Virus record (IMG/VR): IMGVR_UViG_3300042691_054280
Origin: an uncultured virus (IMG/VR IMGVR_UViG_3300042691_054280)
Taxonomy: Duplodnaviria; Heunggongvirae; Uroviricota; Caudoviricetes; Crassvirales
DNA length: 64,000 bases
Direction: 5' to 3' (one strand)
Made by a program: the position numbers and the translations under genes. The notes under the pieces were generated by a model, which saw only the letters and a program-made list of their open reading frames with translations, was not told the DNA's origin and made no database searches. Of this stretch, positions 4,301-63,548 are shown in pieces (the stretch's first letter is position 1; every line of letters starts with the position of its first letter).

Positions 4301-4345
4301 TTGACAGCAATAGAAAATCTCAAAAAGCAACACCCTGACTTATGA
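1343..4345 (+). CDS. rIIA: rIIA-like protein with N-terminal GHKL (Hsp90-like) ATPase
   Basis: GHKL boxes VRELVVNAFDS, DYGVGIG and STKRNTSENFGAFGLGAK, plus VTPSREKV. Directly upstream of an rIIB-like gene with ATGA overlap. Confidence 0.8.
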   Translation: MSVKTIEEEYIGKDTGVAKKINAGATRLVFDILQSTQYSTPIPSTVRELVVNAFDSQREKEIAIEILTGQKKVEDYYITREGEQYADSNFNPDYYDLSRLDTVNNTVEVVYEHNPGVGYCDRFRIKDYGVGIGARRLEGVLELGYSTKRNTSENFGAFGLGAKVALSTGVDYYVLESVYNGKRVKAHCFNYKTDFVIPRFRADGTENPKMTLSDGTTIYYEEVDGCNWTEISFGVKKHNSVRFKESVVEQLNYLQNVRFWERLESGAMQEVYFKTSVLYDSETMIVSKSTGLARPHIVIVKGKNSSSGINYGYVDFKELEMEELFGPVGFKCPIRQTYVNDDGEVVVVQDGVDVTPSREKVIWSESTKAFVQDMLRRAAAEVSELVSTELSQTDFLKWLEAAMAVANGRSKTSDKSEAILVTLSRVIDTKSLRLQYSGSKGIYFTNTLNLFQYFDVKIHRLVPASFNAYDVIEELEGDVSEHESIAEDGESGLKGFKLISKTYSTKSDPPLTAEHIFHREKIVSKLRSHYILNEYLKKTTGSTSDYYITIRRKATGSFLTDILPENRKTYEEGIVKQQDLIESLLSKSSHYKFLDDIEVPEEYKDVFKTAAAAEEHKQAMKNMSPAEIREMFEEIVCYTVRPEHLRTRHYDMKDLEDSFVWDKIELPFKSLLECKSTIYYGTNEDELLLKKVAAIIQPSAPSVADIYKDSSSKFSLRTSSDNNPKLFFYEYPPSRLRLGVDSEGFLTWQDGGSPTDVGTQLSKTPIKASQVLKVNTALAAKLSKLNLPHLRPVDEFFLAENEKGELTCAPEMKQFLTAYYIQKIFPEHTEIERFTQVFDVPYLNENYPVAYKIIKRFVAEIFEYDTYFRIQILLRTPEFMSTFEKYIKFQLFCAMPEDQQEGYGGKEQVSEELFVLSDIPGADFISLDIVQVSEFCEEFSQSAKYLLGRVENGESAALYGDYTSTEYQKQVETYLKAVGALAVELPLTAIENLKKQHPDL

Positions 4346-5511
4346 TCACCATCAATGTGATTGATAATCAAATTGTAGGTTCTTGCGGAGAAGAAGCGTT
4401 TACCGTTCCTTTTACCAAAGAGCTTTACGAAAAGATTCAGCACCTTGCCGAAAAAGGCAATACTGCTGAAAACATGGCAGATTACACTGCTGTGGTAGCG
4501 GAAATTACAGAGCTCACAAAATATGACGCTTCTCAGAAAATTCAGGACCGGCATCCGAACATTTATGTTCAGCCGGGCACCGGAAAGTTTTTCCTGAAGA
4601 ATGGAGATGTAGTTTCGTCTGTGCCAATGCCAAAACCATTGGTGGATCGTATTTACGATTCCATGGACAAAGACATCGACTTCGATCCACTGATCAAAAT
4701 GTGGGTGCGTTGGATGCGTAACCCAATCCTGCACAAGAAGATGAAAGCCGGCACAGGAGAACGCTTCTCTGCACGCTTCTTTTCTTTCGTGAATGCAAAG
4801 TACATGCACCCGGGGCTGAAAGCCAAGCTCATGAAAGAGCATGGATATTCTGAAGAAGTGGCAGCAGAAAAAGCTACCATCTATCAAATGAAGATCACTG
4901 CAGAAGGTCTTCTCAATGGTTATAAAGTATCCAAAGAGATCCTGGAAAAATTCAATCCGGAGACCGGTGAAAAAGAGCCACGCTACAAGCGTACTTTCAA
5001 CATCAACACCGGAGAAATTGAATCTGACGGACTTCCAGAATTCGTGGAAAATCGTCTGTTTCAACCCGCTGTTATGGGTACTAATGGGGATCCTTTTTGG
5101 TGCATAGGTATAAATGGATTCAAAAAGCCAGGACATTTTATCCGTGTCGGATGTGTACACCGTCTTGACAGTTGGGATCAGGTAAACACAAATGATGAAG
5201 CCGCTTGCGTAAAAGGCCTTCATGTTGGTGGCCTTATCTACATCAACAACTACTCTGGAGAAGTCCATAATATTTTCGTGGATCCTATGCACATTGGTGC
5301 AGTTCCGGAAGGTGGTGATGGTGCCATCCGTTGCATTCAGTACTTCGTGCATTCCAGCTTGGCTGGGGTGAATGGTTCCATTTACCATTCGTCCAAGTAT
5401 GCCAACATGACTGATGCTGAGTGGAATGACATGCGTACTGTAGCCATTGCAGAAATGGAGGCAGCATCTGCAAAAATCGAAGGTGAAAAGCAGGAACTGA
5501 CAAGCCTTTAA
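4342..5511 (+). CDS. rIIB: rIIB-like protein
   Basis: C-terminal rIIB-type signature ACVKGLHVGG..Y...VDPMHIGAVP...IRCIQY; paired with rIIA. Confidence 0.75.
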   Translation: MITINVIDNQIVGSCGEEAFTVPFTKELYEKIQHLAEKGNTAENMADYTAVVAEITELTKYDASQKIQDRHPNIYVQPGTGKFFLKNGDVVSSVPMPKPLVDRIYDSMDKDIDFDPLIKMWVRWMRNPILHKKMKAGTGERFSARFFSFVNAKYMHPGLKAKLMKEHGYSEEVAAEKATIYQMKITAEGLLNGYKVSKEILEKFNPETGEKEPRYKRTFNINTGEIESDGLPEFVENRLFQPAVMGTNGDPFWCIGINGFKKPGHFIRVGCVHRLDSWDQVNTNDEAACVKGLHVGGLIYINNYSGEVHNIFVDPMHIGAVPEGGDGAIRCIQYFVHSSLAGVNGSIYHSSKYANMTDAEWNDMRTVAIAEMEAASAKIEGEKQELTSL

Positions 5512-14385: not shown

Positions 14386-17300
14386 TTATTTGCAGCCTGA
14401 GATAGGAAGATTTTTGATGTACCTGGGCTTCAGAGAATTTTGAATCATGTCCTGAACCATAGTTACGTGGTAACTTCTTTCAGCTCGAGGTTCTGCTGTG
14501 ATAGCTGGTACTGCATAGATAGCTTTTCCGGTAAAGTAGCTCTGCACAGGTAAGTACAGATTTCTACCATCTTTTCCAGAAGGGCCTTTAATGAAGATTC
14601 CCCACTTTTTGGTCTTACGATTTGTGACCATAATTACAGGTTCGTAATTTGAAAGTAGCAGCTCAGTTGTAGCTTCAGGACTGTACACTTTGCTGTTTGC
14701 CCGGCTCAGTAGTGGGCGCCCAGCAGCTTTCATAGGACCAAACATCTGCATGAAAGTAAGCAAATCTTCTGAAGTAAAGAAGTTTTCGTCCTGCATCTGA
14801 GAAGCCATATTATGTAAGTACTCCGAGATGCTAATCTGGCTTCCATCGTCAAGTGTCTGTTTGATGTGGAAGAACTCAGGTGGAATCAAATCTGTAAAAG
14901 ATGATGGACTTTTACGAAATGCATTCGTAAGAAAGTTATGCATTACAAGTGCAATTCCAAGCCGCTTTATTTCTCTGGTCGCTTTTTCCACTTCCGGATT
15001 GTCAAACTTACCATTGGTCATAGTTTTCATTGAATCCGGCATGTTTACATACAACTTTGGATTGAAAAGAAGTGTGGTGATTGCTGCAGTGTAAGCATCT
15101 TTTTCTGGACGAGACATGCCTTCTACAGAATTGAACTTTACACTGTAAAGGCTATTGCTTGGATCTACCACTTGTTCAAAGTTGCTGATGAACTTGTTAC
15201 CTTTCAACAATGGATACGTAGCTTTCATGGTAGCCATGTACGTTCCCAAGTTACTTTTTGAATCAGTGTACATTTCAATTGCATACTGCTCATTTGTGTA
15301 TCGGTAGAATGGAGAGTCCGGACGAATCATCAGAAGAAATACAATGTTGCTATCGATGAGCTCATGCATTTCCGGAGTAAGCTCTGTTTTGCCGGCCAGC
15401 TCCATAATGCGACTTTTAAACATGCCAAATGCAGGACTTGTCCTCATTGGGAAATAGTATGAAGCTACTTCCATTGCTTTGGACATGAGTTTTTCGTAAC
15501 CACGTTCAAGGCCAAATACAGAATTTTCACCAATAAACTGGCTCACTACATTCTCTGCCGGATTGTTTGTAGTAAACATGGCCAACTGTTTTACAGTGCC
15601 ATCTTCATTCAGCAGACTTGTAAATTGCCGGTCCCTGTCAGCGTACGATTGAATATTGCTGATCCGGTTCAATCCGTCCATGGAGTCGGGAGTGATCCGT
15701 TTGTATAGATTCAAAAGCTGTCGGCCGGCCCGGTAGAAAGCGTAGAAGTTATTGAGCATGTTGAGTTGCTCCATGGTATTTCTAGCTGCCAGATCCTGTC
15801 CAAGATTTTCAAGTTCTCCAGGCTTCATTGAAACCGATTTTTTACCATCCAGGTTTGCAGCTTCTGCACGATGAGTGTCTTTAGCAATCATGCCTTTTGC
15901 GGCATTGAAAGCTTTTGTGATGTGTCTCAGATCACCACCATACTTCTCTTCAATAATTTTGACCATCAACCTCACGGCTGGCTGATTGAGCAGATTGGTA
16001 CAAGTTTCAGAACCGTACTCATCGTGATAAGCAATAAACAATGCTCTTACTGGCACAGTAATCAAATTGTCATTGAGCTCGAGTTGGAGAGGCTCTTTAC
16101 CAGCGTCAACTGCAGCTGAAAGAAAGAGTGAGCCTACTTTATCTGTTGGAATTCCTTCTTTCGTATGCTCACGGTAGGTTTTATACGTGGTTGTACTACC
16201 GTCTGGCTGCTCGATTTTTATGGCGTAATCTTCGTTGAGATTTACTACACCGTGAATAGCTACGTTTCGGCCGGCAATAATGTTGGCATATACACCACGA
16301 AGCTTATTACCTGCCTGGTTCCGAAGCATAATGTTTGTTTCAGTAGCAGGATCGTTCCAGTCGAGCGCTGTATTGAATTCCGGAATAGCTTTTCGAACAC
16401 GTTCTACTTCCGACCGAAGTGTGACATCATCAAGTGGAGACAGAGCTTCTACAAAGTGTGCCTGGTTTACAAGCACTGCTTCCATTGTATCAAGAATAAC
16501 GTTGTTCAGCTCTGCAGTGCTCAGACTTGAGACTTTAAGCTGACCATTAATCAAAGCTGGATAGTTTGGAACTACTTTTTTGAGGTTGTCATTTTCATCT
16601 GTTTCCACTTCTGGAAACATGAGAAAGAGTTTATCCACGTCAAAGTCAGATCCCATCAACTTAATCAGCTGTCCGGGAACTACAATTGCTTTGGCATAAT
16701 TGGCAGGCAGAATTCGTTTTACAACTAAAGCAACAGAAGAAGCTTTATCCTGGTTTGGAATACGATATCCGATAATTCGACGCAGCTCTTCAGGAACTTC
16801 ATCGAGATTTTGTCCTGGCTGAATGCCAAATTTTCTTGCTACATCTTCTCGAATCTCTACTTCTGCGTGCAGCAGTCTTTTTCCTTTTACGTCGACCCGG
16901 TAGAATTGCAATTCATTGCTCGTAGCATGTCCTCCAATCTGAGCTACCTGCACGGCTTCAAAGCCTTTTACGTTTTGCTTGAACACTTCGTTTTGCAGTA
17001 TGGCCATTATGATGGACTCGTACTTCTTTGCATAGACCGGAAGGTCTAATGGCATAGCAAAACGAAGCTTGCCGGTTTCATCTACTTCAAAGTTTAGTGC
17101 TTGCAAGTACCCGGCTGAAAGATCGCTGTCGTAAATGTTTTGCTCGAGAATCTGACGAATTGTCTTTAGAATTTCATTCTGAGCTTTTTTCAAGTCCTCT
17201 GCTGTGTAAACAGATCCTTCCTTTTTAAGCTGTTCGAGATAGTCAAGCTTCAGACGTTTTTCAACACCCTTGATGTCTTTATCAATTTTAGCTTCAATTG

Positions 17301-20300
17301 CTGCATGGTAAAGTCTTTTGAGATCTGCTCCAGATATCTGAGTTGAAAACCCCAGTCCTGGGTTGTACTCATATACAGTTCCATCTTGAACATTTGAGAC
17401 CATGTTCTTTTTGATCTGTCTGTTCAGTGTAACTTTTGGAGAGCCCTTCATTTCCGGAATTGACTGGGGCTTTCGAAGGCCCCGGGCAGAGTTGATGTTA
17501 AGTTGAAGGGTGTCAAGCTTACCAAGTTCTCCTGGAATTGTAGCAACGTTTTTCTTGGCCAGTTTTTTACCGGACACAAAGTTGGTCACATTGATTGGCT
17601 GCAACCCTGCGTAAACTCCGGTGGCTTCCATCCTGGACAGAAAGTCATTCATAGCCGGATAGTTTTTGGTGTAGCTACGGATAAGAACTGAATATGAGTT
17701 TTTTTCTGATACTACTGCAGCAGTATTCTTTACAAGCTGAAGTTTCTCGTAGTAGGTTTTGATTGGATAGAGCGGAATAGCATCTCCAGCTTTGTTTCCG
17801 GCCGGCGCTGCCCCTTCCTGGTACACAAATTCATCAGTCTCACCTTTCATGTAAGCTTGATAGGCTGGTTCATGAATTTTCATATCCCAATTACCTTCAC
17901 CCATCATCAATCCACGGTACATTGTAAGATTGATATAAGACATTGCATCCGTAGATTCGAACTCAGAAGCCTTGTACTTGTCAGAAATAGTCTTTGCTTT
18001 TTCCGCTGGAACCCCTGAAGCAATTAATCCAAGGCGCATATCTTCAGCTGCACGATTTACTCTTTCTTTTTGTGCAATGTTGTAGTCCAACTTTACATCT
18101 TTGAATGTGGCCTCAGTAAAGGTTGGCATCATTCCGTACGGATCAGTCGAATCTGCAAGCTCTCCTTGGATAGCGTATTTGGAGCCAGGAGTTGTAAGGT
18201 GCCCCATACGTTTGTAGAAGTCTACGAGATTTTTAGAAAGTGCCCGATTTCCTCGGAACAATTTTACTATCTCGTTTCTCATGATGGTCTCTTGCACAAC
18301 AAAAGCTTTGACGAGCTCTTCCTGTTTCAGGTTGGGTACTGAAGCAAAACTTACCCTGGATAAGTTTTGATCTTCCGGATTGCGCTTGAGCAGCTCCAGA
18401 ATTTCTGTTGCTTTCTGCTCGAAGTATTCATTCATTCCGGCAGCCATGTTTTTTAACATGGCATCGATCATTTCAGCTGATTTCTTGTCAAGCTTTCCTT
18501 TTGCGTAGTCCTCAATAACATCACTGAGACGCTTTCCGCCCATACTGTCTTTAGTGAGTTCAACATCAGTTACGATTTGTGCTCCGTTTTTATCCTTGGC
18601 AGTAAATTGAAGGAAATCGTTTTTGAAAGCGTTGCCTGTAAAGACGCTGTCTTTAATCAGTCGATTGACAATTTCTTCCTTCGAAGTGTTTTGGAAATCG
18701 ATTACCGAACCACTGTAGTGGTAATTATGCAGAAGGTTTGAGTAATCGTTTGTCTTGATTGCTTCTCTGACAGTACGTTTGGCTTCGGCAATCCGCAACA
18801 TGTCTTGTACGATTTGTGCAATTACAAGATCATCTTGACGGGTGTCTTGAAGCTTGAAGGCATTACCAAGAACGTTTGGTGTGGCAATAAACGAATACTT
18901 ACTACGATCTGATTGAATCGGTACAGCTATGTAAGAAATACCTTCTCTGAATCCATTGTTAATAAAACCATTTAATCGAATGATGTAAGAATCCAATGCA
19001 TTCATGTCTTCATACGTAGTTGCATCATCAGGCATTTCACCATCACGAAATCCGTCAAAATCACGTACTCCAAAATTGTCCATGAACTCCGGACTTTGAA
19101 GCATGTGTCGCAGCATGATTGATTGATATTTCGGAATGCCCAGGGCAGAAAAGAATGGGTCCGTTCTGTAAATATTCAGCAGTTCTTCATCTCTGCGCTT
19201 GATTCCTACAGCAATCTCTAGCATATGTGACTGCAGATTTGTAGGGTTAATTTGTTTTCCCTCTACGTTTACAAAGCTTTGTCCGGTAATTGCCATTACA
19301 GGAGAGAAGATTGAAGCCAGCTCAAGCATATGCCCTCTTTTCGAAGTGACGTAGTCCTGGCCACCAGCGGCTACGTTTTTCAATTCACCAAGTCGACTGA
19401 ACCGGCTTTCACCTTCAAACTTGCCGATCGATTTGATAATTGGGACCATCATCAAACCAAGTTGAACTATGGCATCAAATCCATCGTACACTCTTCGATT
19501 GTTTTTTGCATCGTACTGCACATAACCAGCATTGACAATTTTCTGAATACTCAGATAAGTATCGTTTGGAAGAATGTTGTCTCCAATGTACAGACCAAGA
19601 TCCCACATAATATCCCCAATCAATTTGGAGTATTCGTGCACCTGATCACCTTTCACGGCAGGCTTACCTGCCCGGGTGTCTACATTCAACACTCTTTTTT
19701 CAAGCTCTCGAAATTTCTCAATGATTTGTGTAAGCTTTTCTTTTCGAATACTTAGACTAAGCGTCTGCGTTTTGTCATCAAGAGTTCTTTCAGTGTAGAG
19801 AGAAGTTGAAGAAACGTCAGTTGCAGCAATCAAATCCTGACGCCATTTATTGATGGTGCGTTCTTCAATGCTTGTACGGTTTGGATTGAAAACGTCTACA
19901 TAGCTTTTTCCATTGGTTTCACGGCTACGCATGAATAAGAACTCAGTAGTGGCCAGGGCAAAGGCGTTGTAGATCATTGCCTGTTCTGGAGAAGACAGCT
20001 TATTCATGAAATCAAGAACCGGCTGCAATTCCGGACGATGCCTTACAGTATTTTCAAGTGCTGCAAGCATCTGTGCAAATGAAGCTTTTTCACTGAAGAT
20101 GTTTAGGAGACTTTTGTACACAAAGTCTTTATCCATGTAGGTATAGTCTCCTATAAAGTTCGGTGCCGTAGATTTGATAGTTGAAAGAAGCTGCTTTACT
20201 TTTCCTGTAAGCCTCTTTGCCGGAGAATCTTCGAGTGCTGATTTACCATAGATTTTTACCAGGGCCTCGTCAGTAGAATCCATGATTGTATCCAGTTCTT

Positions 20301-21564
20301 CCTGCTCTTCTTCGGAGAGGCTCGTATAATCCACACTCGTAAGCTTTCCCTTGCTGTCAACGATTTTGATGCCGGCTTCAGACTTGAGTTTCCATTTTAG
20401 GATCTCTCTCCATCCGTACGTAATGACATTTCCTGTTTTGGGCTCAATGGTGCTATTCCAGTTTTTGTAGAAGTCGAAGAATACGGCCCGGCGCGTTTGA
20501 TGTTCTCCTAATGCAGCAGTTGCTTTAAGCCTGGTAAAAGCTTCAAGTACTTTAGCTCCGTCTTCTTTAGAACGAGTTGTGATGTATGCATTCTCAGCAT
20601 TGAACAACTCTACCAATTCTTCTGAAGTAAGCTCCCTTCCGTCTGTAGATTTGTAAATCCTTGAAAGAGCCCCTTCTGCAATCAGTCCTTTAGTTGTAGA
20701 ATTTCCGAGAAGTTTTGCTGCTATTTCCGTTTCGTTACCGGTGCGCTCAAGATATTTCTTAGTGTCCATGAAGTATGTGAACACTGACATTGCAGCCTCT
20801 TGGAATTCTTTTTCCTTGTAGTCTTGTCGATACATGAAGGCTTTGTCAGTTCCCACGAACTGTTCCGGGTTACGAAACACACCTTTTGAGATAAAGGACT
20901 TGTTCATTCGTCCGGACTCGATCAAACTATACACTTGACGCAATGACCGTTTGTCAGAGAACATTGCTTTTATCCAATTCCATAAATCCTTGAACCACTT
21001 GGCAATCTTTTTTGGAAGAGATTTTTCAGAAGCTTGCTCTGAAAGAACATATTCCCGAAATTGTTCAGCCATACGTTCTTCCAGCACCAAGTTTGAAGCT
21101 TCAGCATCAGTGATATTTGGAAAAGCCTTTCGAACTTTTGTCAGTTCTTCCGCTGTCGGCGTTCCGAGTTTAGATGCCTCGGTATAAAGCTGATCACGTT
21201 CTTCGTTTGAGAGCATTGTACGAAACACCAAGTGGTAAGCTTCGTGATACTCGGTTCCAATTTCGGCTGCACTCCAAAGATGTACAGCTGCATTCTCTAC
21301 ATATCCGTGTACTTCTTCGTCTCCGATCTTTTGAGCAGCGTCAAAAAACTGCACACTTTTTCCAGGAAACCTTGACTCAAGCCAAGTTTTTGCTTCGTAC
21401 ACTCGAGCTTTACGACGTTCTTCCGGATCAACTTCTAAAGGCGCCGTAAAATATTTGTTCGGGACCACCCCTTTGTACAAATTCCACAATGCATAGGCAT
21501 TGGTTTTTCCCTGCATTGCTACAAGGTCTTTCCACTCTTGAGTATTTACGTTTGGACAAAACAT
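14386..21564 (-). CDS. virion-encapsidated two-barrel RNA polymerase (crAss-like vRNAP) with N-terminal zincin-like domain
   Basis: 2392 aa; YRIPNQ and catalytic GSDFDVDKLF (DxDxD) motifs near 16630-16770; N-terminal YHEAYH..F and EE.MAEQF zincin motifs. Confidence 0.9.
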   Translation of the reverse strand: MFCPNVNTQEWKDLVAMQGKTNAYALWNLYKGVVPNKYFTAPLEVDPEERRKARVYEAKTWLESRFPGKSVQFFDAAQKIGDEEVHGYVENAAVHLWSAAEIGTEYHEAYHLVFRTMLSNEERDQLYTEASKLGTPTAEELTKVRKAFPNITDAEASNLVLEERMAEQFREYVLSEQASEKSLPKKIAKWFKDLWNWIKAMFSDKRSLRQVYSLIESGRMNKSFISKGVFRNPEQFVGTDKAFMYRQDYKEKEFQEAAMSVFTYFMDTKKYLERTGNETEIAAKLLGNSTTKGLIAEGALSRIYKSTDGRELTSEELVELFNAENAYITTRSKEDGAKVLEAFTRLKATAALGEHQTRRAVFFDFYKNWNSTIEPKTGNVITYGWREILKWKLKSEAGIKIVDSKGKLTSVDYTSLSEEEQEELDTIMDSTDEALVKIYGKSALEDSPAKRLTGKVKQLLSTIKSTAPNFIGDYTYMDKDFVYKSLLNIFSEKASFAQMLAALENTVRHRPELQPVLDFMNKLSSPEQAMIYNAFALATTEFLFMRSRETNGKSYVDVFNPNRTSIEERTINKWRQDLIAATDVSSTSLYTERTLDDKTQTLSLSIRKEKLTQIIEKFRELEKRVLNVDTRAGKPAVKGDQVHEYSKLIGDIMWDLGLYIGDNILPNDTYLSIQKIVNAGYVQYDAKNNRRVYDGFDAIVQLGLMMVPIIKSIGKFEGESRFSRLGELKNVAAGGQDYVTSKRGHMLELASIFSPVMAITGQSFVNVEGKQINPTNLQSHMLEIAVGIKRRDEELLNIYRTDPFFSALGIPKYQSIMLRHMLQSPEFMDNFGVRDFDGFRDGEMPDDATTYEDMNALDSYIIRLNGFINNGFREGISYIAVPIQSDRSKYSFIATPNVLGNAFKLQDTRQDDLVIAQIVQDMLRIAEAKRTVREAIKTNDYSNLLHNYHYSGSVIDFQNTSKEEIVNRLIKDSVFTGNAFKNDFLQFTAKDKNGAQIVTDVELTKDSMGGKRLSDVIEDYAKGKLDKKSAEMIDAMLKNMAAGMNEYFEQKATEILELLKRNPEDQNLSRVSFASVPNLKQEELVKAFVVQETIMRNEIVKLFRGNRALSKNLVDFYKRMGHLTTPGSKYAIQGELADSTDPYGMMPTFTEATFKDVKLDYNIAQKERVNRAAEDMRLGLIASGVPAEKAKTISDKYKASEFESTDAMSYINLTMYRGLMMGEGNWDMKIHEPAYQAYMKGETDEFVYQEGAAPAGNKAGDAIPLYPIKTYYEKLQLVKNTAAVVSEKNSYSVLIRSYTKNYPAMNDFLSRMEATGVYAGLQPINVTNFVSGKKLAKKNVATIPGELGKLDTLQLNINSARGLRKPQSIPEMKGSPKVTLNRQIKKNMVSNVQDGTVYEYNPGLGFSTQISGADLKRLYHAAIEAKIDKDIKGVEKRLKLDYLEQLKKEGSVYTAEDLKKAQNEILKTIRQILEQNIYDSDLSAGYLQALNFEVDETGKLRFAMPLDLPVYAKKYESIIMAILQNEVFKQNVKGFEAVQVAQIGGHATSNELQFYRVDVKGKRLLHAEVEIREDVARKFGIQPGQNLDEVPEELRRIIGYRIPNQDKASSVALVVKRILPANYAKAIVVPGQLIKLMGSDFDVDKLFLMFPEVETDENDNLKKVVPNYPALINGQLKVSSLSTAELNNVILDTMEAVLVNQAHFVEALSPLDDVTLRSEVERVRKAIPEFNTALDWNDPATETNIMLRNQAGNKLRGVYANIIAGRNVAIHGVVNLNEDYAIKIEQPDGSTTTYKTYREHTKEGIPTDKVGSLFLSAAVDAGKEPLQLELNDNLITVPVRALFIAYHDEYGSETCTNLLNQPAVRLMVKIIEEKYGGDLRHITKAFNAAKGMIAKDTHRAEAANLDGKKSVSMKPGELENLGQDLAARNTMEQLNMLNNFYAFYRAGRQLLNLYKRITPDSMDGLNRISNIQSYADRDRQFTSLLNEDGTVKQLAMFTTNNPAENVVSQFIGENSVFGLERGYEKLMSKAMEVASYYFPMRTSPAFGMFKSRIMELAGKTELTPEMHELIDSNIVFLLMIRPDSPFYRYTNEQYAIEMYTDSKSNLGTYMATMKATYPLLKGNKFISNFEQVVDPSNSLYSVKFNSVEGMSRPEKDAYTAAITTLLFNPKLYVNMPDSMKTMTNGKFDNPEVEKATREIKRLGIALVMHNFLTNAFRKSPSSFTDLIPPEFFHIKQTLDDGSQISISEYLHNMASQMQDENFFTSEDLLTFMQMFGPMKAAGRPLLSRANSKVYSPEATTELLLSNYEPVIMVTNRKTKKWGIFIKGPSGKDGRNLYLPVQSYFTGKAIYAVPAITAEPRAERSYHVTMVQDMIQNSLKPRYIKNLPISGCK

Positions 21565-52124: not shown

Positions 52125-54137
52125 TTACTTATAGATTCTATCGAACCATTCGTTTGAGCTATTGTCTTTTGTTGCAAAAGTCAGCTCTTTGTTGTGAAGT
52201 TCCCTGATGTGATACATGGCTATCATAAGTGCCATGACTCGGTCAAAGTTTCCCTTTCGGTTAAACTTGATCAGCTCCTGCAGCAATGCCGTGTCATAAA
52301 TCTTCTGAAGGTTTAGCGTAATTTCCCCATCTTCATTGGCGCCGCGGCCTGAGACCAACCAGTCCCGGATGTAGATTTCACCCTGGCCTTTTCGTTGTTC
52401 GGTCATGTGCATGCCGTACTGCCGCTTGACAGTTTTACTTTGCAGGTCTTTTTTGTCCAGCATTTCGAACTCTTCCTGCAGCAAATGCAGCTTCCTGAAA
52501 CGTTTTGCGTACGGAATTACTTCTCCGCGGTCGTTCTCAAATCCGATTTTGGCGTTGTAGTATTCCGCCAGCATAAACAGGGTGTAGTTGTAGTCATCCT
52601 GGTTTTCCGGCCGGCCTACGTATGAGGCCACAATTAAATCATCGGGTTTACTGAGGTTATTCGGGACCTTGAGAACGTACGCAGCACCCAAAGAGATTTC
52701 GTTGCTGGTTTTACCATGGGCGTACGGGTCGTGTCCAAGGATGTACAGGTTTTTCGGAGTTATCCCAACTTTTATCCCGTTGTCATCTATGTCGGCTTTG
52801 AACGGAGGTTCGTATATTACTACGGCTCCCGTAAGATTATCCCCTTTTCTGTGAGGATAAGCTTTAATAGCACGTGCTTCAGAGTCTGGCCGGAACTTTA
52901 CTTTTCCGGAAACGTCCCGATATAGTACTCCAACCACACCGATTTTATCCAGGTTGCCGGCAACTACCCGGTTGTATTGTTCTTTTAGCGACGTGACATC
53001 AAAGTAGTTGGCTGTTACCTGAAGAGTTGCTTCTTGAGGATTGAATGGGTGTTCAGCAATGTACTGATCGTATGATTTTGGATCACCGGCTTTTTTCTTG
53101 TTCTCTCGTTGACTTTCCTCGTACTCGATCGCCGATTCCTCGAGACTATTACCGTTTTTGTCTATGAATCCATCCAGATTTTTGGTAATAGGCACGAAGA
53201 AACCACATTCCGTACCCATGGCGCCCGGGTCCCACACGTTTTCAAATGCCATGCAGTCATAAGCTTCCGGATGATAGAACAGTTCTTCAAGGCCTTCAAA
53301 TCCAGGACCTTCTTCACCACCGGTACCAAAAGCAATCATGGTTCCAAGTGTTTTTGAACCTTGCCTCATGGTAGGCATGGCAATTTCCCATGCTTTTAAG
53401 AGCCCGGTAAAAGATCCGGCTTCTTCAAAGAACATCAGCTCACCGGCTTTACCACGAATTTTGTTGGGATTGTCCTTTAGCGACAGACCTATAATCTGGG
53501 ATTTGAACCCCATGGTTACATCGGAGCCGTTGATGTTCCGTTTGTAGCCGGCTTGCTTGTGAAGATCCCGGTCTTTTACTCGAGGTTGTCTCCAGGCCGT
53601 GTGCTCATCGTTAAATGAGAGCATTTCCCACGTTTTTGACAGAATACCGTCCCCCGTAAGGTACTCTTTCTGCTCAGCTACTACAAAATTTCTGGAATTG
53701 CGCAGATGGTAGTAGTTTCTGGCCATCATCGAAGCCGCTTTGTAGGAATATCCTTTTCGGCGGGCCTTTAATACTGCAATGTGCTTGTTCGTTTTTCGAG
53801 CTTTGTCAATTGCATGGAAAAATTCCCAGTCTCCGTCGTAAAATCGTGGAAAATCATACTCACGAGTGGACACAATTGAGCCATCTGGCTGCTCTTCGTC
53901 TGAAACTAGTGCAATCGGACAGTAGTTGAGGTAGAAATAGTGGTATCCGGTAATGGTTATGCCGGCTGCAGTGTAACCATGCAGGCATCTATGCTGCTCT
54001 TCTTCCCAGAATTCCAGATACTGCTTTGTTCCCTCAATTGCCTTGGTGTATTTACCCATTTCTCTAAATGCCGCAGCGGCAGGACTGAGAAGATGGGTGT
54101 CAACAAAGTTGTATTTGGTCAGAATCGGAAGACTCAT
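52125..54137 (-). CDS. terL: terminase large subunit
   Basis: ITGYHYFYLNY, Walker A KARRKGYS, Walker B FFEEAG, FGTGG, and nuclease GHDPY and NFDRVMA motifs. Confidence 0.95.
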   Translation of the reverse strand: MSLPILTKYNFVDTHLLSPAAAAFREMGKYTKAIEGTKQYLEFWEEEQHRCLHGYTAAGITITGYHYFYLNYCPIALVSDEEQPDGSIVSTREYDFPRFYDGDWEFFHAIDKARKTNKHIAVLKARRKGYSYKAASMMARNYYHLRNSRNFVVAEQKEYLTGDGILSKTWEMLSFNDEHTAWRQPRVKDRDLHKQAGYKRNINGSDVTMGFKSQIIGLSLKDNPNKIRGKAGELMFFEEAGSFTGLLKAWEIAMPTMRQGSKTLGTMIAFGTGGEEGPGFEGLEELFYHPEAYDCMAFENVWDPGAMGTECGFFVPITKNLDGFIDKNGNSLEESAIEYEESQRENKKKAGDPKSYDQYIAEHPFNPQEATLQVTANYFDVTSLKEQYNRVVAGNLDKIGVVGVLYRDVSGKVKFRPDSEARAIKAYPHRKGDNLTGAVVIYEPPFKADIDDNGIKVGITPKNLYILGHDPYAHGKTSNEISLGAAYVLKVPNNLSKPDDLIVASYVGRPENQDDYNYTLFMLAEYYNAKIGFENDRGEVIPYAKRFRKLHLLQEEFEMLDKKDLQSKTVKRQYGMHMTEQRKGQGEIYIRDWLVSGRGANEDGEITLNLQKIYDTALLQELIKFNRKGNFDRVMALMIAMYHIRELHNKELTFATKDNSSNEWFDRIYK

Positions 54138-59437: not shown

Positions 59438-61056
59438 CGCTTCTGATTTAGTGACACTCCGAGCATGTGAGCTGTCCAGTTTTTTGGAGTCGTTCCAACT
59501 AGACTACTTATCCTTATTTTAGGATAGCCGGCAAAGTTGTTTGATACTCTTGTAAACCTGTAAACTGCAGAGTATGTAATTCCGTTAGTAGAACTGAAAA
59601 ACGTCACGTTTCCATTATTGCCATGGTTCCAGATCCCTAGATACTGTTTTGTAGTAGTCGCTACTGCAGTTACCACGTTTACAGCCAATCCTCCACCGGT
59701 ATTAATGACGTCAATTTCCCACACGTTTGCAAACGTAGCAAATGCTGGAGTTTTCCATATGTAACCATTCCCTACCCAACTTCCAGAGTTACTCTCAAGG
59801 CCTACCCCACAAACTACATCTTGCAAAGCAGTTGGAGTTGGGGTGGCATCTACAATGGCCAGCATAACCATCGGGAATTGACCATTCAAGTTTAAAGCAT
59901 TGTTACCACTTCCATGTCTGATTGCCATTCCCCCTACTGTATTACCAGTTACAGTTGAACCGGTGCTTAACTGCACACCACCCAGATCAAAGTTTCCAAG
60001 GTTACCGCTACTCTGTATTCCGGAAGCAGCTCCGGAAGATATCCAAGACATGTAGGTAGTACTGAATACAACAGTAGGGCTTACCCTGTTCTGAGGACCT
60101 GAAGTAAAGTGATCCACCACATCCAAACCTCCCCAATTACCATAAGACATTTGACTCCACCTGGTGCCGTTGTACAAAAACGTGATGTCCCGGCCAGGAA
60201 GTAAGAAGTAAGAAGTTTGATGTTGTAGCCTGAACCTGTTAGCTGCAGTACTCGTTGGAGAGTCGTGATCAATAATCAGCAGCTGATCAGTTGCCGCATT
60301 GACAATTGTAACCATTTGGCCGGCAACCCCATTTGTCAATCCCCCGATCGACACAATGTTATTGGCATTGGTCGGAGTAATCCGTATGACTTTTGTAATA
60401 GTCGTAGTTCCTGGCCAACCAGCTGGTGTGTAATTATCTTCCCGGGCATTCGCTGTACTCACCGAAATTACACCCGGGTCCGTAACCACAGTCAGATCAG
60501 CCAGAGTCAGCGCTCGAAATGTTGGGATTGCTGCACTACCTGAGCTAGGCCCTGCAAACACAAGATTGGCTGCCTGTGTATTGAGCCCAATTGTAATAGT
60601 CCCTGATGTGCTAATTGGATTTCCGGCAAGACTGAAAATAGACGGTACTGCCAAGTTTACACTTGTAACCGTACCCGTACCACCCGTCGGAAAAGTCTGC
60701 AGATTACCAGTCCCATCAATGTATTGTGCACTAGTGCCGGCTCCGGTAACCGTAAAAGTCCCTGATCCTACAACCGGACTGCCCACAACTGTAAAAGCCG
60801 GTGGAAGACTCAATCCGATCGTTCCGCCGCCTCCTGAAGAGTTTATTGTCAGGGTCCCATCCGAATTCTGAACAAGAGTTACATTACTACCGGCAACCAA
60901 CAAATCAGTCAAGTACTTGAACACAAACGTTTTTGGACGTGATGTCTTCGAGTAAGCCGTAAGTATTTGATTGTGCCGAATGTTATCCGGACGATCGACA
61001 TTAAAGTTCGACTTATCCAGATCGATCAGATCTTTCAGGCTCAGCGATTTTGCCAT
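59434..61056 (-). CDS. fibre-like structural protein
   Basis: 540 aa, Gly/Ser/Thr-rich; GTVTSVNL...GNPISTSGTIT...VFAGPSSGSAAIPTFRAL fibre repeats; beta-rich C-terminal domain. Confidence 0.7.
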   Translation of the reverse strand: MAKSLSLKDLIDLDKSNFNVDRPDNIRHNQILTAYSKTSRPKTFVFKYLTDLLVAGSNVTLVQNSDGTLTINSSGGGGTIGLSLPPAFTVVGSPVVGSGTFTVTGAGTSAQYIDGTGNLQTFPTGGTGTVTSVNLAVPSIFSLAGNPISTSGTITIGLNTQAANLVFAGPSSGSAAIPTFRALTLADLTVVTDPGVISVSTANAREDNYTPAGWPGTTTITKVIRITPTNANNIVSIGGLTNGVAGQMVTIVNAATDQLLIIDHDSPTSTAANRFRLQHQTSYFLLPGRDITFLYNGTRWSQMSYGNWGGLDVVDHFTSGPQNRVSPTVVFSTTYMSWISSGAASGIQSSGNLGNFDLGGVQLSTGSTVTGNTVGGMAIRHGSGNNALNLNGQFPMVMLAIVDATPTPTALQDVVCGVGLESNSGSWVGNGYIWKTPAFATFANVWEIDVINTGGGLAVNVVTAVATTTKQYLGIWNHGNNGNVTFFSSTNGITYSAVYRFTRVSNNFAGYPKIRISSLVGTTPKNWTAHMLGVSLNQKR

Positions 61057-61060
61057 ATTG

Positions 61061-61068
61061 CAAATCTA
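61061..61068 (-). promoter_or_regulatory. -7 box (TAGATTTG), 4 nt before the first late-module ATG
   Basis: Minus strand reads TAGATTTG-CAAT-ATG. Confidence 0.7.
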
Positions 61069-61376
61069 CGATGTTCTTTCCTTCTCGGGCACACCTCTCC
61101 CCTTGGGATTTTTGAGGTTTCACAACAGATTTTGTAAGGTGCCGTTTTGAGCCTTCGAGGGGGCATTTCTGTCAGCCTGTAGCCTTATTCCCTCCCACCC
61201 TACTATACTATTGCCGTTTTTGCTCCTATCGGGGACAACTTCCAGTAACTATGTAGGTAAAACGTTACCGGTAGAACCCGACTTCTGCCCCTCTAACTAC
61301 CTGACTGGCCATCAAGGGGGATCGATTGGAATCGGAAGCAGTGCCAAATATACTCCAAAAAATTTCTCGAGCAACA

Positions 61377-61407
61377 CTTGACTTTCAAAAAATATTGATT
61401 ACATTTG
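61377..61407 (+). promoter_or_regulatory. full Bacteroidota sigma-A promoter
   Basis: CTTG-19 nt-TACATTTG; closely resembles the groES promoter. Confidence 0.75.
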
Positions 61408-61410
61408 TAT

Positions 61411-61481
61411 CCCACTCTACATATACGGCCATCGTATGTGAACCGAACTAGCCCTGAATCAGCCCGGGGCTTTTTCGTTTT
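61411..61481 (+). ncRNA. candidate ~70-nt two-hairpin small RNA
   Basis: Promoter, then hairpin CATATACG-GCCAT-CGTATGTG, AACCGAA linker, and terminator AGCCCTG-8nt-CGGGGCT-TTTT; no ORF. Confidence 0.65.
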
Positions 61482-61657
61482 CTGGACTTTCCATTCCGGC
61501 AAGGCTTTCAGAGAACTCACCTCCCAAAATTTTCCCCAAAATTTTTTTCGGAACCGGTTTTGAAAATTTGATCTGTGGTTTTGAGTGTGGGTACCTACGT
61601 ATTCAAAGACCCCGGCTAACAAGGGAGCGGGCAAACATCCCCCGTTCCCAACAAACC

Positions 61658-61813
61658 ATGTGGACAGTTTTCCTCTCGCCGAAAACCGGCATTCTCATCT
61701 TCACTCAACGTCAATGGACCAAGGACGGTCCCGTTGAGTCCAAGATCTACGTCGATCCCAACGACAAGGATCGAGCAAAGGCCGAGGCCTTTGCAGCGAC
61801 GCTCAACCCATAA
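61658..61813 (+). CDS. 51-aa protein, first gene of the + strand early-type block
   Basis: ATG after an A/C-rich leader (ACAAACC); GC3-rich codons; flanked by hairpins. Confidence 0.55.
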   Translation: MWTVFLSPKTGILIFTQRQWTKDGPVESKIYVDPNDKDRAKAEAFAATLNP

Positions 61814-61814
61814 G

Positions 61815-62460
61815 GGTTGGGCTTCGCCCATTGGGGGCAAGTCTGAATTAACTACGGTTAGTTCAGGCTTGCTCTTTGTCCTAGAACTGTAGTACAAGAG
61901 ACTAGGGTAAGCTCCCTTACACTTGTTGTACAAAGTGATACAATTACATTGGCTTATTGTTATGATTGTTTGTGAAGGCAATCATCAATGTAGTATTACA
62001 GTTCACTCTTCTGCCTGGCTTGGGTGAGTACTTTGTATTCACTCAAGCTATGGCATTTGGGTTCTGAGTTAACAACTGAGTTAGCTTCCGAGTTATATCG
62101 TGAGTTAAGTTGTGAGTTGACCAGGAATCCCTTCACCATTTTCGAGGTCTCAGCCATACCTCGAATTCCAAATGGTTATTCTATGGCACTTTAACTAACC
62201 TAACCAATAGCCTGGTGGCATCACTGGCAGTTTTCAACTCAGCCTCGAGCAAGCTGAGCCATTTTACACAAACTACTAGCTCTCTAATTAACTCTTTAAC
62301 CTCTCACAGATGAAAGAACTTATTAAAGTCTGTGACCATGGCACAGATCGGGATAGCTGGTAGTCCTTACCCAAACTCTATCACTCAGCATAAAGCAGAT
62401 TCTCCGCGATCTGTGTCTCGTTAATAGCCCGAGATTATGCTGGTGATAGAGTTTACTTTG
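61815..62460 (+). ncRNA. candidate structured RNA tract
   Basis: At least six long stems whose mismatches are G-U on the + strand; cUACGg and GUGA tetraloops; no ORF of 60 aa or more on + in the track. Confidence 0.5.
62064..62120. repeat. five GAGTT(A/G) cores at exact 12-bp period
   Basis: GAGTT at 62066, 62078, 62090, 62102 and 62114 with variable spacers. Confidence 0.9.
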
Positions 62461-62482
62461 TATTCCACTTAACTTCAATTAC

Positions 62483-62821
62483 ATGAAACCACGGTACTGG
62501 AAATACTACTGCATTTTAAACGGTGATTCAGAGGTAAAAGTGTATCGACATATAGTTGAAGGCAACAATGTCAATCATCTTAAACCTTTGAAAGGTGCAA
62601 ACAGACAAGCAAAAGAGCTTGTAACAGTGATTACTGTCAAAGTTCCCATGGAGACATTTGAAGCCTTCAAAGAAATGTTTGACTCTTCTGGACTTCAAAC
62701 AGATGATCGGTTTTTCACTGCATCTTTTGGTCTGCATAAAAGGCCAATTGCAATGGAGTGGGAAAAAATCAAATCTGAAATTCTACAAAAATTTCCTTTA
62801 ACACCAATTCTTACATCATGA
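62483..62821 (+). CDS. hypothetical early protein
   Basis: 112-aa ORF with an AT-rich leader. Confidence 0.6.
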   Translation: MKPRYWKYYCILNGDSEVKVYRHIVEGNNVNHLKPLKGANRQAKELVTVITVKVPMETFEAFKEMFDSSGLQTDDRFFTASFGLHKRPIAMEWEKIKSEILQKFPLTPILTS

Positions 62822-62952
62822 AAAAACTCATCCTTTTGGTACTCGTTGCTATCATGGCTACATCGTGCGCTACTACTAAGCGTGGCTATGATTACAAAGC
62901 GCACCAAAAACGTTCTCAGCAATTCAAGAAGCATGCTGGGTGCTGGCATTAA
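62818..62952 (+). CDS. 44-aa lipoprotein
   Basis: MKKLILLVLVAIMATSC lipobox; ATGA overlap; not in the ORF track. Confidence 0.7.
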   Translation: MKKLILLVLVAIMATSCATTKRGYDYKAHQKRSQQFKKHAGCWH

Positions 62953-62981
62953 TCTGCTTCTCAACCAAATTCCATCTCACA

Positions 62982-63245
62982 ATGAAAAAGATTTTGCTCT
63001 TTCTTCTGCTTTTGGCCGGCATGGCCTCTTGCAACATTAATCCGGAACGTCCTGTCCGGATTCTCTACACAGGTGAAAAAGCCTTTGTGGAATTGCCTCA
63101 CGATTTGTATCGGCCAACCGATACATTAGTTGTGACCTATGATGTCCCACTGGACAAATGGAAAGTGGACACTTACTGGCAAAAATTTGCCGGTAACCGC
63201 AATCCAAGCGGAACGTGTTTCAAAGCAGTATTCATCCAAAACTAA
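62982..63245 (+). CDS. small lipoprotein
   Basis: MKKILLFLLLLAGMASC lipobox; start re-assigned. Confidence 0.75.
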   Translation: MKKILLFLLLLAGMASCNINPERPVRILYTGEKAFVELPHDLYRPTDTLVVTYDVPLDKWKVDTYWQKFAGNRNPSGTCFKAVFIQN

Positions 63246-63253
63246 ATACTGCA

Positions 63254-63472
63254 ATGAACATTACTATTCTCAGACCGTATTATCTTAACGGTCGAACCGA
63301 GTTCCTGAAAGTAGGCGCTGTGGTTGCGGATAATGCTGAACAAGCAATCCGCGGGATGAGCCGCCGGTTCAATCGTACTACTGCCCATCCAATTGAGGAT
63401 GGGATTGTACTCGGTTTCCCTGACGGAAGCCGCTATCAGGTCCACGACGAACAGCTGCTCCCTGTCACGTGA
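63254..63472 (+). CDS. hypothetical protein
   Basis: Start re-assigned to MNITILRP. Confidence 0.55.
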   Translation: MNITILRPYYLNGRTEFLKVGAVVADNAEQAIRGMSRRFNRTTAHPIEDGIVLGFPDGSRYQVHDEQLLPVT

Positions 63473-63548
63473 ACCTACCATTTTCAAAAGCCTCGGTGAT
63501 AGCAATATCACTGGGGCTTTGCTTTATTCACCAATTTTCTCTCTCCAA

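Follow-up and report, generated by a model that had tools for sequence, protein, structure and literature searches.

The described systems closest to the element reported here are the trp, his, pheA and pyrBI attenuators, in which a short leader open reading frame (ORF; 14-16 codons in trp, pheA and his) precedes a stable stem and a U-rich tail, the regulated ORF follows within tens of nucleotides, and an alternative helix involves the translated segment. The element is a predicted RNA three-way junction, together with the 17-codon ORF before it, in a freshwater crAss-like phage represented in IMG/VR by the uncultured virus record IMGVR_UViG_3300042691_054280; the whole 64,000-nt stretch of DNA that was analyzed, which makes up most of the genome, is called the window. 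The attenuator parts just listed have counterparts in this phage, and the leader ORFs of the phage and its relatives have 12-17 codons, but the likeness has limits. The alternative helix of the window competes with the interior of the junction and not with the 5′ arm of a terminator; the stem is 19-20 bp long, branched and A/U-rich at its base; its role as a terminator is a prediction; the polymerase may be a virion enzyme; and the leader peptide has no runs of regulatory codons.

Two other systems share part of this layout. The RNase III sites of phage T7 place a stem of about two helical turns between early transcript units, but they are unbranched hairpins with an internal loop, unlike the junction of the window. 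In the 35S leader of cauliflower mosaic virus (CaMV), an arbitrary short ORF ends a few nucleotides before a stable stem and the next ORF begins soon after. That system is eukaryotic and depends on scanning, and nothing comparable is known to be established in bacteria; the likeness is one of layout only.

The early RNAs of the crAss-like phage phi14:2 offer a further comparison. In a preprint on this phage (bioRxiv 10.1101/2020.03.07.982082), two long intergenic early regions are described as transcribed rightward from the earliest time point, with RNA levels that exceed those of most genes and stay high and with a function that is left open; the early transcripts are reported there to have no common upstream motif, and the virion polymerase to transcribe single-stranded DNA far better than double-stranded DNA. 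These regions resemble the locus studied here in being non-coding stretches among the first early genes, read in the early direction. No similarity of sequence or structure to them was found, however, and the gap in the window is far more structured: in the current phi14:2 record the intergenic regions correspond to the gap 2905-4601, which is not notably structured except at 4471-4590. A brief survey of the literature on crAss-like early promoters, virion polymerase, non-coding RNA and tmRNA turned up no description of an element of the present kind.

The element lies in a divergent gap of 1.4 kb (61057-62482) between the late (-) and the early (+) arms of the phage genome (Table 1). Most likely it acts at the RNA level, on the + strand and in cis, directly upstream of the early genes. 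As to what it does there, we tentatively favor a leader or attenuator through which the early operon would respond to translation, while leaving the greater share of the probability to other explanations. The first-pass annotation of this DNA, made from the sequence alone, had named an attenuator, a riboswitch-like element or a ribozyme as possibilities. The last two fared badly: there is no Rfam match and the junction is not conserved in relatives, which speaks against a riboswitch, and a junction with two unpaired bases, no conserved core and no Rfam ribozyme hit does not look like a ribozyme.

The fold itself is well defined, and it is the one that the first-pass annotation had drawn, a 20-bp stem with one bulge enclosing two hairpins. 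The outer stem joins 62373-62384 to 62443-62454 through 12 Watson-Crick pairs and, beyond a bulged T62385, 62386-62392 to 62436-62442 through seven more, with A62393-T62435 as a possible 20th pair. Within it stand stem II (62395-62401 with 62408-62414; 7 bp, two of them G.U) and stem III (62415-62420 with 62430-62435; 6 bp, one of them G.U), and A62393-A62394 alone are unpaired at the junction. The minimum free energy (MFE) of the 98 nt from 62365 to 62462 is -37.0 kcal/mol, as against -16.4 +/- 2.8 kcal/mol for 200 dinucleotide shuffles (z -7.39), none of which folds as well. The same junction is found in both the MFE and the centroid structure of the wider stretch 62304-62482 (z -4.36), and in the nested ensemble of 62290-62482 all three of its helices have pair probabilities of about 0.9-1.0. 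The full junction is worth -36.2 kcal/mol and the outer stem alone -23.2 kcal/mol. The outer stem has Watson-Crick pairs only, and for this reason the minus strand reaches about the same stability (-37.5 kcal/mol, z -6.42); DNA folding likewise gives equal values for the two strands (-23.4 and -23.1); the strand of the element is therefore not settled by energy. The three non-Watson-Crick pairs of the junction, all in the inner hairpins, are G.U when read from the fold in the + sense, which weakly favors the + strand.

Upstream of the junction stands a second hairpin, X, with a pair probability of about 0.59. It holds the motif CAGATGAAAGA at 62307, whose ATG is the start codon of the leader ORF, and the motif recurs at the equivalent spot in the related loci L076 (CAGATGGAAGA) and L023 (CAGGTGGAAGA). 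The 11-nt form CAGRTGRAAGA occurs seven times in the phage genome and 80 related loci together, where about 3.8 occurrences are expected, and three of the seven are at the syntenic place (the window, L023 and L076). X-like hairpins of the relatives have arms that covary, as judged by eye (AGAUGG/UCAUCU, AGGUGG/UCACCU and GAGAGG/UCUCUC); the need to pair conserves the sequence of the 3′ arm of X, and this likewise constrains the ORF. The 17-codon ORF, which had been noted at the outset as covering a competing arm, is present, and its TTTAACC-N9-ATG context resembles by eye that of other + arm genes of the phage.

Table 1. Coordinates of the features of the divergent gap and leader peptides of the related loci
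Feature	Location	Strand	Description
Hairpin	61833-61876	+	20 bp, after the small ORF
Branched fold	61884-62004	+	Closed by a 12-bp stem
Hairpin	62012-62055	+	20 bp, 3-nt loop; apex carries the 12-mer TACTTTGTATTC
Hairpin X	62304-62335	+	8-bp stem (62304-62311/62328-62335), 16-nt loop; in MFE and centroid
Leader ORF	62310-62363	+	ATG, 16 codons, TAG; peptide MKELIKVCDHGTDRDSW; ends 9 nt before the outer stem
Competing arm c	62340-62353	+	GGCACAGATCGGGA; within the leader ORF; pairs with 62403-62417
Arm e, partner of arm c	62403-62417	+	Shares bases with the loop and 3′ half of stem II and with the start of stem III
Three-way junction	62373-62454	+	From RNA folding; 20-bp-class stem closing two hairpins
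U-rich tail	62452-62467	+	TTTACTTTGTATTCCA; contains the 12-mer TACTTTGTATTC at 62454-62465
First sizeable + arm ORF	62483-62821	+	112 aa; starts 28 nt past the stem
Leader peptide	L076		MEDTISVQLISP
Leader peptide	L023		VEETDDSAPTHLIK
Leader peptide	L092		MPRGRTIGFHLSPQ
Leader peptide	L060		MCVGEIDCQYSHTH

The evidence that carries most weight is the recurrence of this arrangement in related phages. The 80 related loci were anchored on terminases 65-75% identical to that of the window, the closest two, L023 and L060, being at 75%. In L076, L023, L092 and L060 the corresponding place holds a module composed of hairpin X, a long stem that contains a single inner hairpin and an internal CATAC loop, and CACTTT with a T-rich tail. 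A pattern scan of IMG/VR yielded eight further loci, which together with L023 represent eight distinct related lineages (L023, L060/L100, L076, L092, L099, L102, L107 and L108). When the long stem is aligned over nine sequences, 10 of the 19 predicted pairs show compensatory changes and one G.U pair is invariant in 9/9, which places the long stem of the relatives on the early (+) strand; nothing resembling the module is found in Rfam.

The window keeps the parts in the same order and at the same place, that is, between a conserved head motif and a first small ORF with its terminator on one side and the early ORFs on the other: hairpin X is followed by a linker, by a long stem (here the junction) and by a tail, TTTACTTTG, to be compared with CTTTACTTTT in L092. 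The next ORF begins 28 nt after the stem in the window and 21-32 nt after it in L060, L092 and L099. The two versions are thus alike in place, order of parts, X motif, short ORF ending at the stem and TTT-rich tail, whereas the relatives have a stem of 13-15 bp with their single hairpin and CATAC loop and the window has one of 19-20 bp with two inner hairpins; it also carries about 400-600 nt of non-coding sequence at this place that the relatives do not. The junction appears to be a lineage-specific elaboration of the module, one lineage's version of it.

The short ORF recurs as well. In seven of the nine lineages, the window included, and thus in six of the eight relatives, an ORF of 12-17 codons begins at or near X and has its stop codon 0-9 nt ahead of the stem. 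In the window, L076, L023, L092 and L060 it begins at or just before the 5′ arm of X and covers X, with ATG as the start four times and GTG once, and in all nine lineages a start codon lies no more than about 10 nt from the 5′ arm of X. There is no relationship among the peptides, and L092 and L060 differ further in the position and frame of their starts, which suggests that it is the act of translation that matters, not the product. Chance produces an ORF of 12-20 codons that has an ATG or GTG start and a stop 0-9 nt ahead of the stem in 127 of 3000 shuffles of the upstream region of the window; the frequency is 2.8-7.9% over 3000 dinucleotide shuffles per upstream region, and 3.9% of positions in the genome of this phage have the same layout. 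Under looser criteria such an ORF accompanies 10 of 88 other long stems in these loci, overlapping stems included. The recurrence favors a coupling to translation, as far as sequence comparison can tell, although the cases are not independent, since the start motif is common to five lineages by descent.

A second long stem was seen downstream of the module in L023 and L026 (14 and 12 bp, respectively), with a common tail, AGTGCAGAGGG. In L026 a 12-codon ORF ends 1 nt before it, and modules made of a short ORF and a long stem may therefore occur in tandem.

A translation-sensitive leader could be built from these parts as follows. Hairpin X would present the start codon, the 17-codon ORF would be the translated segment, and the terminator-like stem with its U-rich tail would halt or end most transcripts, or otherwise block expression; ribosomes on the leader ORF would decide whether the stem forms. 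A ribosome that has reached the stop codon in the relatives, 0-3 nt short of the stem, would, given the established size of the ribosome footprint, cover much of the 5′ arm of the stem. In the window, a translating ribosome would instead cover arm c, which would otherwise pair with the interior of the junction during synthesis. Either way, translation of the leader would gate read-through into the early genes. In this scheme the RNA would be transcribed, the ORF translated and transcription ended at the stem; these points, like the direction of the switch and any control by the element of the genes that begin at 62483, are our inference. The position of the early ORF is in keeping with such a leader: because 28 nt leave no room for a separate promoter, the ORF is most simply co-transcribed with the module, and a promoter of its own would lie inside the stem, so that the simplest reading makes the module its 5′ leader.

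The competing helix proposed by the first-pass annotation (62340-62350 with 62407-62417) proved to be real and somewhat longer than described, extending to 14 bp with one bulge (62340-62353/62403-62417), and it does exclude both inner hairpins. When growing transcripts are folded, it is the MFE structure at 3′ ends 62418, 62425, 62434 and 62440, and the junction replaces it once the 3′ end reaches 62446; the competing helix is thus a predicted co-transcriptional intermediate. The duplex of the upstream arm with the inner region is worth -28.6 kcal/mol, the 14-bp helix alone -23.4 kcal/mol. Forcing the helix in a nested fold costs 11 kcal/mol (-42.6 versus -53.6). A nested fold cannot contain the competing helix and the outer stem at once, and a pseudoknot of the two (-23.2 and -23.4 kcal/mol, before loop penalties) could, on these energies, equal the junction with its -36.2. 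Pairing of the 3′ arm of X with the 5′ arm of the long stem was considered as a conserved alternative and set aside, as it was found by eye in only three of the eight related lineages (L023, the L060 type and L107).

A number of observations weigh against a translation-sensitive leader. Several concern the competing helix, and they leave the attenuator of the first-pass annotation partly supported: its short ORF recurs in seven of nine lineages, but the helix that was to work the switch has no conserved counterpart in the relatives, and it spares the outer stem, excluding stems II and III alone. It is therefore not an antiterminator that excludes a terminator stem, as the outer stem can still form in a pseudoknot. 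In the nested ensemble there is a single conformation, with a probability of about 1 for the junction and 0 for the competing helix. The helix is also unusual rather than extreme, since -28.6 kcal/mol is reached by 3 of 1000 shuffled upstream sequences and, elsewhere in the phage genome, by 24 of 849 stretches of 100 nt. Codons of regulatory type do not form runs in any of the leader peptides, those of the relatives included, and none of these peptides has repeated codons.

Other points against it concern the stem as a terminator and the short ORF. Only 4 of the 12 basal pairs of the outer stem are G-C, which makes the base A/U-rich; the tail UUUACUUUGUAUU is moderately U-rich, with 9 U in 13; and the U-richness of the tails that follow the long stem in the relatives varies, some not being U-rich at all. 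For these reasons intrinsic termination is not assured. A consensus terminator scan did not call the element an intrinsic terminator, because its loop exceeds 8 nt. As to the ORF, the criteria were chosen after the first cases had been seen, and two lineages are exceptions: in L099 the ORF that opens at the motif ATG continues through the stem, and in L102 the motif ORF stops after four codons, a second ATG there opening an ORF of 11 codons whose stop lies within the 5′ arm of the stem. The stop codon lies 9 nt from the stem in the window and 0-3 nt from it in the relatives, and with this difference in geometry the ribosome would have effects of opposite sign under the two sub-mechanisms outlined above.

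The remaining points concern homology and expression. A model of the relatives' X and long stem (R2), which at E < 0.01 hits its four seed loci alone, has no hit in the window at E <= 10, and a model of the junction (R1) hits only itself in 86 sources totaling 1.03 Mb, the 80 loci among them. Because the sequences are unrelated and the two models miss each other, the junction is a positional counterpart of the relatives' stem rather than a demonstrated member of its family, and, having no homologue, it offers no covariation of its own. The phage population is clonal, with no variant in the element in the two sequencing runs that cover it, and no RNA run is listed as containing 61057-63000; the one run labeled RNA-Seq is probably DNA and contains just 61057-61189 and a poor 40-nt match.

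The alternative that survives best, which we regard as unlikely but to be taken seriously, is that the stem terminates transcription constitutively, or protects the 3′ end of a stable, early and non-coding RNA transcribed from 61830-62372, the short ORF being incidental. The long stem would then shield the 3′ end from exonucleases, and the start signal of the gene at 62483 would overlap the stem. Small RNAs are usually built as a hairpin followed by a long stem and a U tail, and the sequence upstream (61711-62130) is the most structured + strand part of the window (z to -6.5). Other intergenic hairpins of the + arm resemble terminators with an A-run, a stem and a T-run, and the element has the same AAA-stem-TTT plan with a U-rich tail. 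Phage phi14:2 is, in addition, reported to make abundant, stable early non-coding RNAs, and one of the regions concerned contains a tmRNA gene. A terminator or an RNA 3′ end leaves unexplained, however, why a short ORF lies at the foot of the stem in seven of nine lineages, and the gap of 21-32 nt between stem and ORF in four lineages leaves little room for an independent promoter; the A/U-rich, branched stem would moreover be unusual for an efficient intrinsic terminator.

The tmRNA gene just mentioned was found at 4031-4500 (+) of phi14:2 (L013, NC_021806), with the tag GSSVQKLAMVA as given by ARAGORN. It scores 46 bits with Rfam RF00023, for a gathering score of 47 (E 1.4e-16), and is unannotated in the record. 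It lies in the gap reported for an abundant early long non-coding RNA, and the structured part at 4471-4590 overlaps its 3′ end; the part of the preprint available makes no mention of a tmRNA.

A processing role is less probable still: we would give only a small chance to the stem being an RNase III site or messenger stabilizer, cut by the host enzyme or simply an obstacle to RNases, that separates the leader from the early message and sets their half-lives. The outer stem, with 19-20 bp and one bulge, has about two helical turns, which is the known substrate length of RNase III and agrees with its requirement of about 20 bp. Two further stems of about 20 bp lie upstream (61833-61876 and 62012-62055), and the position between a leader and a first cistron presumably matches that of the RNase III sites in T7 early RNA. 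Against this, the outer helix of the relatives (13-15 bp) is short for RNase III, and the short ORF is not accounted for.

It seems improbable that the junction has no function, being a lineage-specific insertion or a decayed repeat that is self-complementary by chance. The junction is indeed a singleton, in a place where the window has some 400-600 nt more than its relatives and where the 12-mer TACTTTGTATTC is duplicated. Yet the fold has a z-score of -7.4, it occupies the place of the relatives' covarying stem, and the flanking motif, ORF and tail are kept. The sequence persists as well, in that at least half of the words sampled from 61057-63000 recur in each of 19 listed DNA runs from freshwater or plankton (10 studies are named, and one run names none) and the two runs that cover the element, X15 and X8, do so without a change; X18 and X20 do not cover it. 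A mobile element was also considered and rejected: when the 20-mer of the 3′ arm was sought in 185,579 genomes, the one match was inside a coding region of a Spirochaete metagenome-assembled genome, and because a single match is the number expected by chance, the element is not multicopy and mobile there.

We see only a slim chance that the module is a bacterial analogue of the pararetroviral ribosome shunt. By analogy, ribosomes would end the leader ORF 0-9 nt before a stem whose base joins both flanks, cross that base, and start on the early ORF 21-32 nt beyond. If true, this would be a structure-guided loading of ribosomes onto the first genes in hosts that we assume to be Bacteroidota and to make little use of Shine-Dalgarno sequences.

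Least credible is an element that works as DNA at the divergent junction, for example within a replication origin, as a binding site for a protein or as a cruciform, for although the all-Watson-Crick outer stem is equally stable on both strands (RNA -37.0/-37.5, DNA -23.4/-23.1) and five iteron-like YGAGTTR repeats at an exact spacing of 12 bp lie 250 nt upstream, the 41-58 nt between the arms make cruciform extrusion unfavorable, the other strand would have A.C in place of the three inner G.U pairs, the counterpart in the relatives shows the invariant G.U and the compensatory changes typical of RNA, and the neighboring hairpins are much more stable on the + strand. The preference of the crAss-like virion polymerase for single-stranded DNA in vitro, as reported for phi14:2, was also counted in its favor.

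An N4-type hairpin promoter has a 5-7-bp stem and a 3-nt loop in the template DNA; the element, with its stem of 19-20 bp and its branched interior of 41 nt, is not of this type, and a 3-nt loop is found in the upstream hairpin 62012-62055 alone. The 12-mer TACTTTGTATTC has exact copies in the window at 62454-62465 and 62029-62040 only; when the two regions are aligned locally, the extended repeat comes out best, at a score that 1 of 500 shuffles reaches. As a promoter the 12-mer was rejected, being one base short of the Bacteroidota -7 box (TAnnTTTG). A scan for TTCAYTHAA and a comparison of upstream sequences revealed no motif common to the + arm genes, and a model of the conserved head motif matches neither copy of the 12-mer. 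The idea that the junction is a paralogue of the branched fold at 61884-62004 remains a weak lead, as the best local alignment is just the 12-mer repeat; by eye, 8 of 12 pairs are common to the two outer stems, with four double changes.

Searches for further copies gave little. Rfam returned no match at the gathering score in the whole window and, at E <= 10 in 61000-62600, two chance hits (18.1 bits for a gathering score of 80, and 16.7 for 82). ARAGORN found no tmRNA or tRNA in the window, and neither did Rfam. An exact 21-mer scan of IMG/VR recovered only a near-identical contig; this IMG/VR/metagenome contig, 100% identical over 1844 bases, has the only other copies of the junction. The same contig was the only match when the 112-aa downstream protein was used as a query against IMG/VR and metagenome contigs, and blastn of 61100-63500 against 50,697 phage records gave no match. 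The sole variant over 61057-63000 in four freshwater runs is a C>T change at 62497, within the 112-aa ORF, which is carried by all three DNA runs that cover this position.

The phage itself is crAss-like. Its terminase (52125-54137, -), portal and major head protein match crAss-type PHROG families, and the terminase is about 40% identical to those of gut crAss-like phages, with matches in 164 phage records. An IMG/VR fragment with 100% identity to the window closes the map into a circle of 85,455 bp, on which the - strand genes run from 61056 down to 9772 and the + strand genes from 62483 through the rest of the circle to about 9700 of the window. The protein of the 62483 ORF is without a PHROG match and alone in its cluster among 5.8 billion proteins; we regard the ORF as an ORFan and presume it to be an early gene. 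A 2392-aa protein (14386-21564, -) without a Pfam or PHROG match has DFDVD at residue 1640, the signature that the phi14:2 preprint names for the crAss-like virion RNA polymerase (bioRxiv 10.1101/2020.03.07.982082), and this protein is likely to be the virion-packaged RNA polymerase of the phage.

Two further islands of conservation lie in the gap. Island A (61085-61336) is a conserved, structured non-coding element of about 230-250 nt, immediately upstream of the first late (-) gene, that is present in 24 related loci, with compensatory changes in 17 of 25 predicted pairs. The minus orientation is the better one (-71.1 versus -60.1 kcal/mol; 123 versus 44 G.U cells), and there is no Rfam match. 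It is probably a leader RNA of the 50-kb late (-) operon, and not part of the element studied here; it may be of more interest than the junction itself. Island B (61565-61626, +) is a single-copy motif of the approximate form TTTTTGAGAGYG-N4-CCTACRTATTCAAAGACCCCGGCTA, found in the loci of 19 relatives at E <= 0.003. It heads the + arm some 40-60 nt before the small first ORF, and is a candidate early promoter or other start signal. In the relatives as in the window it is followed by a small ORF (61661-61813 in the window) and then by a G+C-rich, terminator-like hairpin (61833-61876).

Between that small ORF and hairpin X, the window has its most structured stretch, 61815-62060 (+; z -9.99). 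The imperfect pairs of the 20-bp hairpins in the gap, read from the fold, are all G.U in the + sense, which fits a stable + strand RNA. Immediately downstream, at 62065-62119 (+), there are five YGAGTTR repeats with an exact 12-bp spacing, a number that none of 100 shuffles attains. They could be iteron-like sites for a protein or, alternatively, a repeat of four codons (SELT/TELA/SELY/RELS/CELT) within a 56-codon frame whose only start is GTG. Elsewhere on the + arm, in L096/L095 (the same phage, at about 76-78 kb of the circular map), upstream regions end in tRNA-like T-arm/acceptor sequences (GGTTCGAATCCTGTCCTGACTAC and variants), which suggests a tRNA cluster in the gaps between small ORFs.

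Finally, we note what a translation-sensitive leader would mean for phages of this group. For the switching on of early genes in this widespread group, the recurrent module provides a concrete candidate that can be mutated. If the module is coupled to translation, it would be a leader-peptide device in hosts which we take to be Bacteroidota and to begin translation in a way unlike that of Escherichia coli.

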